A stretch of 64,000 nt of DNA from a candidate division WOR-3 bacterium. GTDB lineage: Bacteria; Hydrothermota; Hydrothermia; JBDRYB01. Below are positions 27,001 through 39,000 of this stretch, in pieces; the first letter of the stretch is position 1; every line of letters begins with the position of its first letter. The stretch covers positions 235,413 through 299,412 of the forward strand of contig JBDRYB010000001.1 of assembly GCA_039803205.1 (NCBI GenBank). The letters run 5' to 3'. The position numbers are program-made.

Positions 27001-30000
27001 CCCTGAAGGCCGAAGGGGGGAAATAACTACCGGATCACCACCTTGCCGGATTGGTTACGGGTTACGGGTTGCGGGTTGCGGGTTGTCCAGATGTAGACAC
27101 CTGGCTCAAGGCTCAGCCGGTTCTCGCCCTCGTGCAATTCACCGGAATAAGCTAGCCTTCCGTCGGACTTGTATATTTTTATCCCAATATCATAGGGGGA
27201 GATGAAGAGCGCGCCCCCGGAACCGGGGAGCAGGCATAGTCATGGCCCGTTCCGTCAAATGTCTCGGCAAAGATGAACTGACCCATCAGCATGCTTATTG
27301 TTATGAAAAGATACATCATGATAAGGCTCACATTATTGAACCTCGTTAATGAGCATCTCAGGATCACCTGACCGCTTAAACTTTGCCCAAAACCTCCCTT
27401 AACTCTCTCCGTCAGGGCCCTCGGAGCTGAGGCTCACGAAATCCTCAAGGAGGTGGAGAAAAGGGTAGGGTCAGCATTATAATCTGGTCATGAAGGTCCG
27501 AGTTATACCCATGCTTTTTCTGGCTACATGCGCGCCCAAAACCTCAAGTCAGCCAGGCCAGGTTGAGAGTGATTTAACCCTAACGCTCGGATACCAAGGG
27601 GGGCTTGTTCCCATTCAGGCGAGGTTTGGCGCTCCTTATCTCATAATCCTGAAGAACGGGGGGGTCTTCAAGCTAACCGAGGAGGGCGAAACCCTCCGCT
27701 ACGCTGGATTTCTCCCCGAGGACAGGGCACGCTTTATTGGCTTCGCGAGGAGGCTGTGGGATTCAGGCCTTGAGGGGAATTTTTCCGTTATGGAGGGAGC
27801 CACAGATCTCCCCTCGCTCGTGATAAGAATGAAAAAGGGGGAGGAAACCAGGGAAATATCCATATACGGCTACCCAATGGGAAGGCTCAAGAAGCCCGGA
27901 GGCCAGTTCATAGATTCAATTATGGCTCTGGCTGGCTCAGCAAAAACAACGGCCGAGGGTTGGGTTCCTTGGGAGGTGGAGCTCAGAGCAATGTCCTGGG
28001 CAGGCGATACGGCCGGATTGCGGGTTTATGACTGGGAGGGGCCGGACATTCCGCTGGACTCCTTAGCAGAGGGATACCTGGCCGCTGAGATCGGGGGAGA
28101 CACCGCCAGGGAGCTGATCATCTATCTCACGGGGAAAACCGCCTACACGAGAAGGGATATGGCCCTTTTCAGGAAGGGGGGAAAGCTATACTGGGTGGCG
28201 ATTATCCCCATCCTCAGGTAAGAGAGGACTGGTTTCGCTGTTTTTATCACCTATCCCTTTCTTCAAAAAGGTTAACCTGAATTTATTACTCCTTCGGGAT
28301 AGCCTTCTCAGCGGCTTCTGCCTCGGCCTTCTCGGCCTCAAGAACGATCTCGCGGAACGGCGGAGCGCCCGTGCCCGCTGGAATGAGGCTCCCTATTATG
28401 ACATTCTCCTTGAGACCCCTGAGCTCGTCCGTCGCGCCGGAAATCGCGGCCATAGAGAGCACCTTCGTGGTATCCTGAAAGCTGGCCGCGGCTATGAAGG
28501 AATCGGTTGACAAAGCGGCTCTCGTTATCCCGAGGAGCACGACCTTGTGCTGGGCTGGCCTTCCGCCTGATGCGACTATCTTTGCGTTCTCCTCCTTGAC
28601 CCTCGCCAGGTCAATCAGGTCTCCGGGCAGGAACTTGGTGTCCCCTGGGTCCTCTATCCGGACCTTTCTGAGCATTTGCCTAACTATTATCTCTATGTGC
28701 TTGTCGTCTATCTCAACGCTGGAGAGCCTGTAGACCTCCTGGATCTGATCGAAGAGGTATTCCTGGACATATTCCTTTCCCCTTATCCGAAGGAGGTCGT
28801 GCGGGTCTATTGAGCCTGTGGTGAGGGGCTCGCCTGCCTCAACGGCTTCACCGTCACCAACGAGGAGATACCTTCCGTAAGGAACATCGTAGTCAACTGG
28901 CTTCCCCTCTTTTGGCACCACTTTGATCTTGAAAACCCCTTTCTCAAGGCTCTCAATTGAAACCACTCCGGCTATCTCGGAAACAAGGGCCTTGTCCGCT
29001 GGGCTTCTGGCTTCAAAAAGCTCCTCAACCCTCGGTAGCCCTCCCGTTATGTCCCTGGTCTTCGCTATTCCAGCAGAGACCTTTGCTATGATGTCCCCTT
29101 CCTCAACCAGGGGAAGCTCAGCCGTTTCTCCGGATTTGACCGCGTCTATTGCCTTGCCAGCGAGGCGGCACTCGTGAACCAGCGCGACCTCCTCTATGAC
29201 CTCTCCGGTCCTCTCGTCCAGGATCACGGCCTTTGGATAAAGCCTGCGCTGACGGGAAACATATATGACATACTCAACCTTGTTCTCCTCAACCGTCTCT
29301 CTGAGGGTTATGTTGGGTATAACATCAACGAGCTTGAGCCTTCCCCTTTTTGATACCAGGATGGGGAGCGCATACGGTTCCCATTCGCAAAGCATGTCCC
29401 CGCGGTTGACCTCCTGGCCATCGGAGACGAGGACCTTTGAACCATAGGGGATGCGGTATACCCTCTCCCTCTTGCCCGTCTCGTCCCTGAGGACGATAAC
29501 GCCCTTCCTGGATAGCACGCTCCTCGCTTTCTTCTTGCCGGCCAGGATTAGGCCCCGGAACTCCACCTTCCCAGCAAAAGCCGCAAAATGCGCGGCCTGC
29601 TGGGCTATACGCTCAGAGACCCCGCCAGTGTGGAATGTCCTAAGGGTCAGCTGGGTCCCTGGTTCTCCGATGGACTGCGCGGCCATAACCCCAACAGCCT
29701 CCCCTATCTCAACTAGACGGCCAGTAGCGAGGTTTCTCCCGTAGCACTTCGCACAAAGCCCGCGCTCGGCCTCACAGTAGAGGACGGATCTTATGGTTAC
29801 CTCCTCTATGCCTGCTGACTCTATTCTCGCGGCCGCATCCTCATCTATTTCCTCGCCTTCTCGGACTATGAGCTCCCCGGTTTCAGGGTCAAAGATGTCA
29901 TCAAAAGCCACCCGGCCAACTATCCTCTCGGATAAGGGCTTTATGACTGTCTCGCCCTCCTTTAGGGCTGTCATGCGCCTTCCCTGAACCGTGCCGCAGT

Positions 30001-36000: not shown

Positions 36001-39000
36001 CCCATTGCCTTGAGGAGTCGCGTTATGGGCAACTTTTTCCGCTTTGATATGGTGAAGCTGAGAACCTTTGTCCCATCTATGTGGAACCTTATCCAGGGAC
36101 CGCGGTATGGAACCAAAAGGGCAGAATATATCTGCGTCTCCTTCTCTTCAAGCTCGTAATAGACGCCGGGGCTTCTGTGCAATTGGGAAACAACCACGCG
36201 CTCCACGCCGTTTATTATGAATGTGCCCCTCTCGGTCATGTATGGGATGTCAGCGAAATAGACGCTCTGCTCAACCACCTCACCCTTTGGTTTGCCGGTC
36301 TTCGGGTCCTTTTGAACGAGGCGGAGTTTGAGGCGAAGGGGCACCGCGTATGTGAGGTTCTTCTTGATCGCCTCTTCCTCGCTCATCTTGGGCTTTCCAA
36401 GGGTATAGCTCACATACTCCATGTGGTATTTGCCCTGGAGCCCCTCTATGGGAAAAACCTCCTTGAAAAGCCCGTGGAGCCCCTCATCAGTCCTCTTCTC
36501 AGAGTCCACATCCTCTTGGAGGAATGCCCTGTAGGATTCAAGCTGGACCGTGAGGAGGTCCGGCATGGGATAAGACTCCTCCTGGACTCCTATCCTCTTG
36601 GGTATTTTTGGCATGCTATCACCACCTAAGCTTGTTCCGGGCAGGGCCCTATGAGCCCGCCTCAGGAAGCGTGAACCCTTGAGATCACTTGATCTCCACG
36701 GTGGCTCCGGCTGCCGTGAGCTGCTCCTTTATCTTTTCGGCTTCGTCCTTGGAAACTCCCTCCTTCAGCGGCTTTGGCAGGGTATCAATCAGCTCCTTGG
36801 CCTCCTTAAGTCCAAGGCCAGTTATGGACCTGACCTCCTTCAGGACTGGGATCCTGTTGTCGCCTACGCTCACGAGAATGACATCAAAGGTGTCCTTTTC
36901 CTCTGTCTCGGGCTGTGCCGCCGCAACTCCGGCTACTACCCCAGGGGCCGCGGCTACCGCGACGGGCGCGGCCGCTGTTACGCCGAACTTCTCCTCCATA
37001 GCCTTCACCAGCTCGGCGAGCTCCAAGACCGTGAGGTTACCAACAGCATCCAGTATCTCTTCAACGCCAAGTTTCTTATCAGGCATCTAAGGCCTCCTTT
37101 TTCTCTCCTTTCTCCTTTAGCTCCCTGATAGCGTTCAGGGCATAAACGAGCTTCAAAAGAAGCGCTTTCATCACATATACAGGCCCAGCGAGCTGGGCTT
37201 GAAGTATCCCCACAACCCTCGCCCTCAACTCCTGGGGGGACGGGAGCCTGGAAATTGCCTCTATTTCATCCTTGCCGATAACCCGTCCAGCGAGAAAGCC
37301 AAGCTTGAGAACGCCAACGCCATGCTCTTTCGCGAAATCATAGAATATGCGGACCGGAGCGATCTCATCTCCCTTTGCGTATATCACAGCGTTCTGACCA
37401 TCAATCCCGGACGCCATCTCATCCATGTTCATCTGAGCCAATGCCCTCCTCAGGAGGTTGTTCTTGACCACCCGGACGCCGGAGTTGACATCCCTCAATT
37501 GCCTCCTCAGGCGGGTAAAACTCCCAACATCTATTCCCCTGAAATCAGCGAGATAGAAAGCGGAGGCGGTCTCGAGGGACTCTCGCAATTCCTCAACTGC
37601 CTTGACCTTCTCCGGCCTTGGTTCACGGACCAAAGGCTCTCTCGCGGCACGCTTTAGCTTGCTCTTTGTCATATTCTTACCCCCCTTTCTCTGAGGGCTG
37701 AGGCCAGCTCCGATACGGATACCTTCACAGACGGGCCCATAGCGGGCGAAAGGTGAGCTGAGCGTATGTATGTCCCCTTGACAGTATGGGGCCTTGCCTT
37801 CACGAGCTCCTCCGCGAGGGCAAGAAGATTCTCAAAGAGTTTCTCTGGGCCGAACGCGGTCTTGCCTATGGGCACATGTATGTTAGCGCCCTTGTCAGTC
37901 TTGAACTCCACCCTGCCGGCCTTGAGCTCACGGACCGTTATTCCCACCTCCTTGGTCACCGTTCCGGCCTTAGGGCTGGGCATGAGCCCCCTGGAGCCGA
38001 GGATCTTTCCGAGCTTGCCAACCTCAGGCATGGCCTCCGGGCTAGCGACTATAACATCAAAATCAAGCCATCCAGCCTTTATCTTCTCTATGAACTCCGC
38101 GAAACCGACCATGTCAGCGCCGGCCTCTTTTGCCTCTGCCTCAAGCGAAGGCTCCTTTGTGAGAACGAGAACCCTAACCTGCTTTCCGGTTCCGTTCGGC
38201 AGGACAACCGTCCCCCTAACTGACTGATCGGTTTTCTTTGGGTCTATTCCCAAACGAAACGATGCCAGAACAGTCTCCGGGAACCTCGCTGAGGCGAGAT
38301 GCTCTGAGACTATCCGACACGCCTCGGCTGGCGAGTATTCGGCCTTGGGATCGTATTTCTCAAGGAGAGAGCGGTATCTCTTGCCACGCTTTGCCATGTC
38401 AGTCCTCCACGACCCTTATTCCCATTGAACGGGCAGTCCCTTCTATTATCCTCACCGCGGCCTCAAGGTCATTGGCGTTCAGGTCATTCATCTTCTCTTT
38501 TGCTATCTCAACGACCTTTGAGCGGGTTACCTGGGCAACGATGTTCTTGCCGGGCTCTCCAGAACCCTTCTCAATCTTGGCCGCTTTCGCCAAGAGCACT
38601 GAAGCGGGCGGGGTCTTCAAAGTGAAGCTGAAGCTCCTGTCCTTGTATATCTCAACGACAACAGGGATTATTAGGCCGGGCTCCTTGCCCCTCGTGGCCT
38701 CGTTGAATGCCTTTATGAAACCGCCTATATCAGCGCCATGCTGACCAAGAGCTGGCCCGACAGGGGGCGCTGGGGTAGCCTGGCCAGCAGGGAGCTGAAG
38801 CTTTACTACTGCTATCAACTCCTTTTTCTTCTTCGGTGGCATATCTAAACCTCTCTATCTTCCTCCCGCCCTCTCCACCTGGATGAAGTCAAGGACAACC
38901 GATGTTACGCGGCCGAAGAAGGTTATCTCCACCTTCATCTTCCCCCTCTCGGGGAATATCTCCTTTATCTCGCCCTCCATGCCCGCGAATGGGCCCTCAA

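Follow-up and report, generated by a model that had tools for sequence, protein, structure and literature searches.

A standard rpoB-rpoC operon in a Hydrothermia clade with no recognisable Gre factor, DksA or RelA/SpoT synthetase

Analysis of the window, a stretch of 64,000 nucleotides from the genome of a candidate division WOR-3 bacterium of the class Hydrothermia, revealed a standard rplKAJL-rpoB-rpoC operon; the oddity is the gene content of the surrounding genome. Gre factors and (p)ppGpp are regarded as near-universal in bacterial transcription and growth control. The reading we hold to be likely is that the window holds a standard operon in a bacterium whose clade is devoid of Gre, DksA and a RelA/SpoT synthetase, that Gre was lost at the base of the class and DksA later, and that the clade would clear its backtracked polymerases without a factor and control growth without (p)ppGpp.

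All genomes compared were draft bins, 272 from the phylum and 64 from the class. The genome under study is 95.93% complete with 0.05% contamination and consists of 50 contigs; the other two genomes of its genus are 98% and 86% complete, and the three make up family f1. Together with families f7 and f8 it forms a clade of 22 genomes. All positive controls were recovered in the named genomes. The negative results below concern recognisable homologues, as HMM and BLAST searches are blind to a non-homologous or very divergent substitute factor.

The rpoB-rpoC operon

The region 28286-36614 on the minus strand is a normal rpoB-rpoC operon (Table 1). The encoded subunits have the full Rpb1 and Rpb2 Pfam domain sets, the NADFDGD motif, the bridge helix and the trigger loop. 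The true start of rpoC is probably slightly downstream of the listed TTG.

Table 1. Operon genes and beta' elements in the window (aa, residues of the window's beta' subunit)
Feature	Position	Strand	Remarks
rpoC (RNA polymerase beta')	28286..32548	-	unsplit ORF, 1420 aa; Rpb1 domains 1-5, E 1e-71 to 3e-14
Trigger loop C-terminal hinge (aa 1166-1180)	29009..29053	-	G1169 = E. coli G1136, Gly kept
SI3-like insertion in trigger loop	29054..29608	-	~185 aa; RPOC_hybrid domain at aa 1184-1246
Trigger loop N-terminal arm (aa 966-980)	29609..29653	-	T974 = E. coli I937, V977 = A940
Bridge helix of beta' (aa 806-843)	30020..30133	-	F810 = E. coli F773, N829 = N792
Rim helices of secondary channel, approximate (aa ~688-745)	30314..30487	-	aa 516-740 = E. 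coli beta' 475-697
rpoB (RNA polymerase beta)	32508..36614	-	longest ORF 1368 aa; Rpb2 domains 1, 2, 3, 45, 6, 7
rplL, rplJ, rplA, rplK	36685..38842	-	upstream of rpoB
nusG	38855..39433	-	NusG N-terminal domain + KOW

Distribution of Gre and DksA

The search of the genome with PF01272 gave no match at E<=10, that with TIGR01462 gave none, and the best match to PF03449 reached 8.8 bits. A tblastn search with eight Gre proteins of the phylum returned nothing under E 0.07, and a phylum-specific Gre-core HMM run against the 15,200 six-frame ORFs gave a best E of 5.8. Three curated models, a phylum profile and tblastn thus all bear out the absence of Gre reported in a preliminary description of this DNA, and this absence supports its view that the RNA polymerase of the lineage would work without a Gre factor. 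The other two genomes of the genus showed the same absence, and no TFIIS-type zinc ribbon (PF01096) was found in the genome. A scan of all six-frame ORFs for the Gre-tip motif yielded 10 chance matches, none of them in a Gre-like context. In other classes of the phylum a long Gre gene is followed by tsaC/yrdC; here tsaC (C15:9812-10765) is preceded by an unrelated ORF of 276 aa, with no Gre remnant.

Within the class, PF01272 scored over the cut-off in 3 of 64 genomes, in ORFs of 61, 144 and 638 aa, which reproduces exactly the earlier count of 61 genomes without Gre. In two of these genomes the match is a fragment, embedded in DNA that looks foreign. In the third, G015, with a completeness of 75%, an entire Gre of the long form lies on a contig of 2.8 kb with a GC content of 0.32, against 0.35 for its genus; as this value fits the genus, the loss in the class may be incomplete. 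A 569-position profile of the long form detected nothing new in the 64 genomes. Eight sub-threshold PF01272 matches (17-22 bits, ORFs of 266-439 aa) were assigned to the PPIase part of trigger factor, one verified by Pfam and seven judged by eye.

Across the phylum, Gre was found in only 134 of 272 genomes, always as a long form of 620-840 aa. About half of the phylum is therefore without Gre, including f19 (0/11) and f33-f43 (1/48), with at least three Gre-less clades besides the class, and the loss is not the class-specific trait it had been taken for. In a beta' tree the whole class lies on one side of a branch with a support of 99, f1 is the sister of f7 and f8 (SH-aLRT 99), and at least seven changes of Gre state are required in the 62-genome sample. 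The pattern in the class (61/64) is consistent with the long form of Gre known from the phylum having been lost once, at the base of the class, but the reading as a loss, and not as a gene that was never acquired, hangs on a tree of one gene that has no root.

A DksA-like factor, which the preliminary description had left unsearched, proved the most informative of its open points. No DksA/TraR domain (PF01258) was found in the genome or in the other two of the genus, and tblastn of the genome with six DksA proteins of relatives gave no significant match. DksA is present in 235 of 272 phylum genomes, most of the class included, and is missing from exactly the three-family clade (f1 0/3, f7 0/7, f8 0/12; 0/22 together). 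The clade is thus without any known secondary-channel factor, and the loss of DksA is later than that of Gre and limited to the clade.

Distribution of RelA/SpoT enzymes

PF04607 had no match in the genome or in any of the three members of its family, and tblastn of the genome with 12 RSH proteins of relatives gave no significant match. The RSH hydrolase domain HD_4 (PF13328) reached at best 14.8 bits in the genome, in an alternative frame of low complexity that overlaps another ORF, and the hydrolase is absent from the genus as well. The synthetase, hydrolase and tblastn searches therefore agree with the reported lack of RelA/SpoT in this genome, and no RelA/SpoT-type synthetase was found in the 22 genomes of the clade.

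The extension of this lack to the whole phylum did not hold. PF04607 exceeded the cut-off in 19 of 272 phylum genomes (absent in 253), eight of them in the same class, and HD_4 was found in 13 of 272. Full-length Rel is encoded in families f3 (2/2) and f4 (5/6) of the class, and elsewhere in the phylum there are short forms of RSH; across the phylum, RSH enzymes are uncommon but not missing. The nearest relatives of the f4 Rel among 185,579 species genomes have only 37-63% identity and are spread over many phyla, so that no donor can be named.

DksA elsewhere acts together with ppGpp. A lineage without RSH is not new in itself: Atkinson et al. 2011 (PMC3153485) name the PVC superphylum, together with some free-living bacteria, as lacking these enzymes. 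The genome and its genus resemble PVC bacteria in having neither the RelA_SpoT synthetase nor the HD_4 hydrolase, but the phylum differs in that 19 of 272 genomes keep the synthetase domain and 235 of 272 keep DksA despite rare RSH. By analogy with PVC bacteria, growth in the clade may be controlled without (p)ppGpp.

The beta' subunit and the clearing of backtracked polymerases

Residues 801-983 of the window's beta' correspond to E. coli beta' 764-946 with no length change. G045 and G046, for which a wrong reading frame had been taken, were left out of the comparison among genomes. The trigger-loop insert is, by offsets, about 4 aa shorter than that of E. coli, has the same size in Gre-bearing relatives and ranges from 182 to 198 aa across 60 phylum genomes. 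The rim helices, where Gre and DksA dock in other bacteria, show no indel against Gre-bearing relatives. Of the four substitutions that boost hydrolysis in E. coli, at positions F773, N792, A940 and G1136, the window's beta' has the equivalent of A940V alone, which also occurs in 11 of 20 Gre-bearing relatives; F773 and N792 are kept as in E. coli and not altered as in cyanobacteria. A residue other than Gly at the G1136 position is absent from the window and from the 18 class genomes read, and is present in the Gre-less clades f34 and f43 of the phylum. Comparison of insert size, rim helices and these four residues revealed no clear compensation of the cyanobacterial type. Nothing in the polymerase clearly points to a raised intrinsic hydrolysis, which speaks against the reading we favour. 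Apparent insertions common to the genome under study (G000) and G036 (aa ~597-610) were considered as a new element and rejected as a variable loop, since over aa 516-740 the length of the G000 subunit exceeds that of E. coli by just 2 residues.

Substitutions of the I937/A940 type in the trigger loop alter hydrolysis, according to PMC7026648 and PMC4756841. In Deinococcus and Thermus, trigger-loop variants raise intrinsic cleavage, the main determinant being a non-Gly residue at G1136 (Esyunina et al. 2016, PMC4756841). The window's beta' shares the I937T equivalent with them but not the non-Gly residue, and both genera keep Gre.

Cyanobacteria, as described in PMC7026648 and PMC10895346, have no Gre, no DksA and an RNA polymerase with high intrinsic hydrolysis, and in the latter source their enlarged trigger-loop insert shields the rim helix. 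The likeness extends to a free-living habit, the absence of both Gre domains and of DksA/TraR, a trigger-loop insertion and the A940V-equivalent residue. The differences are that rpoC is split in cyanobacteria and one ORF in the window, that their insert is hugely enlarged and that of the window about E. coli-sized, that the F773, N792 and G1136 equivalents are unchanged in the window, and that RSH is kept in cyanobacteria (the control was positive in Synechococcus) and absent in the clade.

In the explanation we prefer, the polymerase would clear backtracked complexes itself, by hydrolysis that depends on its trigger loop, and Mfd (812 bits), Rho (617 bits) and NusG-coupled translation, all encoded in the genome and NusG within the window, may assist. 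A less likely explanation is that cleavage is stimulated by an unrecognised protein which inserts into the secondary channel and either shares no ancestry with Gre, DksA and TFIIS or has diverged too far from them. It would agree with rim helices that keep their length and general character, with an insert not enlarged for shielding, unlike in cyanobacteria (PMC10895346), and with the finding that no trigger-loop or bridge-helix pattern of compensation sets the Gre-less genomes of the class apart from the Gre-bearing ones. No candidate was found, however; the ORF adjoining rpoC (27490-28221) starts with a lipoprotein-like leader and belongs to no Pfam family, and cyanobacteria show that bacterial life is possible without a secondary-channel factor.

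That the genes lie on unbinned or unassembled contigs is very improbable. By marker count 4% of the genome is missing, and the few Gre matches in the class sit on short contigs or contig ends; but Gre, DksA and long RSH are consistently absent from the three genomes of the genus and from all 22 in the clade, the near-complete G056 and G057 of the class (3-4 contigs, 99-100% complete) are also without Gre, and the same search recovered rpoC in 258 and DksA in 235 of 272 genomes. Least credible is the original version, a class-only loss of Gre with a phylum-wide loss of RSH in the second Gre-less group after cyanobacteria: it accords with 61/64 class genomes without Gre and 253/272 phylum genomes without PF04607, but conflicts with the Gre-less f19 and f33-f43, the repeated state changes, the long Rel in 7 of 8 genomes of f3 and f4, and the "several smaller taxa" besides cyanobacteria that PMC7026648 already gives as lacking Gre. 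A literature search, with a supplement of PMC7026648 included, gave no list of Gre-less taxa, and the two WOR-3 genome papers made no mention of GreA, ppGpp, the stringent response or RelA in a relevant sense.

To our knowledge, experimental work on a group lacking both Gre and DksA is limited to cyanobacteria, where the unusual architecture of the polymerase has been put forward as the explanation. A clade of thermophiles that has neither factor, and whose polymerase is of conventional architecture, would test the generality of this proposal, and the phylum offers a built-in comparison, in that some of its genomes carry Gre, others have DksA alone and others again have neither. Returning to factor-free clearing, we suggest only tentatively, and with considerable doubt, that the clade offers a second natural test of transcription without a secondary-channel factor, reached by a non-cyanobacterial route (unshielded rim helix, E. 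coli-sized insert, unsplit beta') in a lineage that also has neither (p)ppGpp enzymes nor any SRP component that could be detected; on such a route, either the polymerase would raise its intrinsic cleavage by a novel mechanism, or a cleavage factor not homologous to the known ones would await discovery. A cultured strain has been reported for the class (PMC12285271), which would make biochemical tests feasible.

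Secondary-channel factors in the genome and clade of the window

The rpoB-rpoC operon of the window is ordinary (table), and the finding concerns absences in the remaining genome (G000; 2.32 Mb in 50 contigs, completeness 95.93%, contamination 0.05%). Searches of G000 with the Gre C-terminal domain (PF01272, E ≤ 10) and full-length GreA (TIGR01462) each gave 0 matches, and the N-terminal coiled coil (PF03449) gave a single match of 8.8 bits. With eight Gre proteins of the phylum from outside the window's class as tblastn queries (six long-form and two short), no match in G000 was better than E 0.07; an HMM of the 170-aa Gre cores of other-class proteins reached at best E 5.8 against 15,200 six-frame ORFs of at least 60 aa. 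An acidic-tip motif scan of G000 returned nothing Gre-like and no TFIIS-type zinc ribbon was found. The domain and full-length models, tblastn, the Gre-core HMM and the motif scan thus bear out the claim of the preliminary description that Gre is missing from this genome.

Features of the window
Feature	Position in window	Strand	Description
rpoC	28286-32548	-	1420 aa; complete Pfam domain set of beta' subunit
rpoB	32508-36614	-	1368 aa as longest ORF; complete Pfam domain set of beta subunit
rplL, rplJ, rplA, rplK, nusG		- (same strand)	upstream of rpoB-rpoC
beta' insertions of G000	32300-32400 and 31850-31900	-	aa ~50-62 and ~222-236
ORF convergent on rpoC	27490-28221	+	243 aa; lipoprotein-like leader; no Pfam family

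DksA-like factors, which that description had left open, were also searched. DksA (PF01258) was found in 39 of the 64 genomes of the class Hydrothermia and in 235/272 genomes of the phylum, in ORFs of about 120-150 aa; six proteins read from families f4 and f12 carry D-x-x-D-x-A at the coiled-coil tip, which we take to be the DksA tip motif. In contrast, it is absent from the window's three-family clade (0/22): its own family f1 (0/3), f7 (0/7) and f8 (0/12), which make up 22 of the 37 phylum genomes without DksA. tblastn of G000 with six class DksA proteins found nothing. A tree inferred for 62 genomes from a beta' fragment of 557 columns places f1 as sister to f7 + f8 with an SH-aLRT of 99. 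The remaining Gre-less clades all keep DksA, e.g. f19 (11/11). Gre and DksA are therefore both missing only from f1 + f7 + f8 in the phylum, leaving no known secondary-channel factor there. We consider it likely that the absences in this genome and clade are real.

No components of the signal recognition particle were detectable in G000 either: ffh (TIGR00959) had 0 matches at E ≤ 0.001 and the small SRP RNA (RF00169) none at E ≤ 1. Of the 64 class genomes, 59 lack the SRP54-type GTPase domain common to Ffh and FtsY (PF00448); the remaining five belong to a single genus and gave only 26-30 bits in ORFs of 273-280 aa. The controls for TIGR00959, RF00169 and PF00448 were positive in 14/14, 13/14 and 14/14 named genomes, respectively. 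Loss of SRP would be far more surprising than loss of Gre.

Distribution of Gre in the class and phylum

The count of 3/64 class genomes above the PF01272 cut-off was reproduced, and a 569-position long-form profile including the N-terminal extension found no further Gre in the 64 genomes. Eight further class matches of 17-22 bits were rejected as Gre, being trigger factor. The three exceptions are weak. Two genomes of one genus, G036 and G033, share an almost identical stretch of 50-60 aa from the Gre C-domain, adjoining a DNA methylase gene; the contig of G036 ends within this stretch, and G033 has it as an in-frame fusion downstream of a MutS fragment (MutS domain V), with no N-terminal coiled coil. 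The GC content of this region is 0.37, versus 0.49-0.51 in G036 rpoC, and the protein most similar to the piece is a classical short GreA (48% identity) rather than the long form of the phylum. The region looks like imported or misbinned DNA. The classical GreA C-domain fragment (L003, 1498-1680, - strand; L004, 1225-1656, + strand) lies beside the DNA methylase and a restriction-enzyme-like gene. In the third genome, G015 (75% complete), a 2.8 kb contig encodes a complete long-form Gre; the GC content of this contig (0.32) fits that of the genus (0.35), so this Gre may be a true survivor.

The Gre domain was found in 134/272 phylum genomes (92 of the 181 of good quality) and in 131/208 outside the class. 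Nearly all matching ORFs are 620-840 aa long, and their C-terminal part is a complete Gre core. In the long form of other classes and G015, this core is preceded by about 470 conserved aa assigned to no family (L015-L024, L005/L125), and tsaC/yrdC follows the gene in at least four genomes. Further Gre-less groups occur outside the class, namely f19 (0/11) and f33-f43 (1/48). In the beta' tree a branch with an SH-aLRT of 99 separates the class from all other genomes, and at least seven changes of Gre state are required; four of these concern one genome each and may just reflect its incompleteness. Gre loss is thus recurrent in the phylum and not peculiar to the class: as a class trait it holds for 61/64 class genomes, but about half of the phylum is also without Gre.

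RelA/SpoT and growth control

In G000 the synthetase domain (PF04607) had 0 matches, the hydrolase domain (PF13328) matched only a single low-complexity alternative frame (14.8 bits), and tblastn with 12 RelA/SpoT-type (RSH) proteins of relatives found nothing. Across the phylum, the synthetase domain was present in 19/272 genomes and the hydrolase domain in 13/272. Eight of the 19 belong to the window's class (f3, 2/2; f4, 5/6; one f10 genome), with synthetase ORFs of 603-798 aa at 148-156 bits, two of which are truncated at contig ends; short forms of 221-373 aa occur elsewhere. Rel has a conserved upstream neighbour in f3 and f4 and is therefore native to both families. This gene of about 250-266 aa (L026-L032), of no known family, always precedes the long Rel, with partial overlap. 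Among 185,579 species genomes, the nearest relatives of f4 Rel are spread over many phyla, at identities of only 37-63%.

The synthetase domain is missing from the window's own family (0/3) and from f2 (0/4). Absence of RelA/SpoT can thus be upheld for these families, whereas a phylum-wide absence, proposed from too small a sample of ten genomes, is refuted. Overall, the earlier observation is partly confirmed and its interpretation partly supported, the absences standing for this genome and its clade. Since DksA is near-universal in the phylum while RSH is rare, DksA must act without (p)ppGpp in most of it. Growth control in G000 would operate without (p)ppGpp.

RNA polymerase of the Gre-less lineages

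G000 encodes Mfd (812 bits), Rho (617 bits) and NusG. A stalled polymerase may be handled by intrinsic trigger-loop-dependent cleavage together with Mfd, Rho and NusG-coupled translation. Intrinsic cleavage by E. coli RNA polymerase is raised by F773V, N792D, A940V and G1136Q (PMC7026648), and by I937T and above all G1136M (PMC4756841). When E. coli beta' chains of known structure are used to fix the numbering (aa 801-983 of the window's beta' = 764-946; aa 1151-1257 = 1118-1225), the window's beta' keeps F at 773, N at 792 and G at 1136; positions 937 and 940 hold T and V, respectively. Among 52 readable genomes (two rows in the wrong frame were dropped), V at 940 occurred in 11/20 Gre-bearing but only 3/19 class genomes, and all 20 Gre-bearing genomes had D or E at 792; G at 1136 was invariant in both sets (class, 19/19; Gre-bearing, 20/20). 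No residue pattern at the surveyed positions tracked Gre loss within the class. Outside it, 6/13 Gre-less genomes have a non-glycine at 1136, versus 0/20 Gre-bearing ones; A, L or V stands at this hinge in the Gre-less families f34 (L083-L085) and f43 (L087-L089).

Regardless of Gre state, the insert in the trigger loop measures 182-198 aa in 51/52 genomes and in 9/10 added later (242 aa in G254), and the rim helices show no insertion or deletion. In cyanobacteria the rim helix is covered by a very large Si3 and rpoC is split (PMC10895346), whereas the window's polymerase uses neither solution. The particular value of the clade is that it lacks a secondary-channel factor yet has a conventional polymerase architecture. 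To call this lineage the second Gre-less bacterial group after cyanobacteria is wrong or overstated. PMC7026648 mentions several smaller Gre-less taxa but names none of them in its text or in the supplement consulted; RSH are missing from the PVC superphylum, some mycoplasmas, some spirochaetes and one Thermoanaerobacter (PMC3153485). In the two WOR-3 genome papers there is no mention of GreA, ppGpp, stringent response or RelA, and we found no published report of Gre, DksA or RSH absences in this phylum.

Some beta' sequences have further peculiarities. In G036 and G039 (f8; L049, L051), Lys replaces Phe before the catalytic His of the trigger loop (E. coli F935 position). In the 1472-aa beta' of G053 (f11; L105), about 100 aa are inserted in the N-terminal part (alignment columns ~178-290); the ten other aligned beta' are without them. 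G000 and G036 have two common insertions of 13-14 aa, missing from nine other aligned genomes, which fits the grouping of f1 with f7 and f8.
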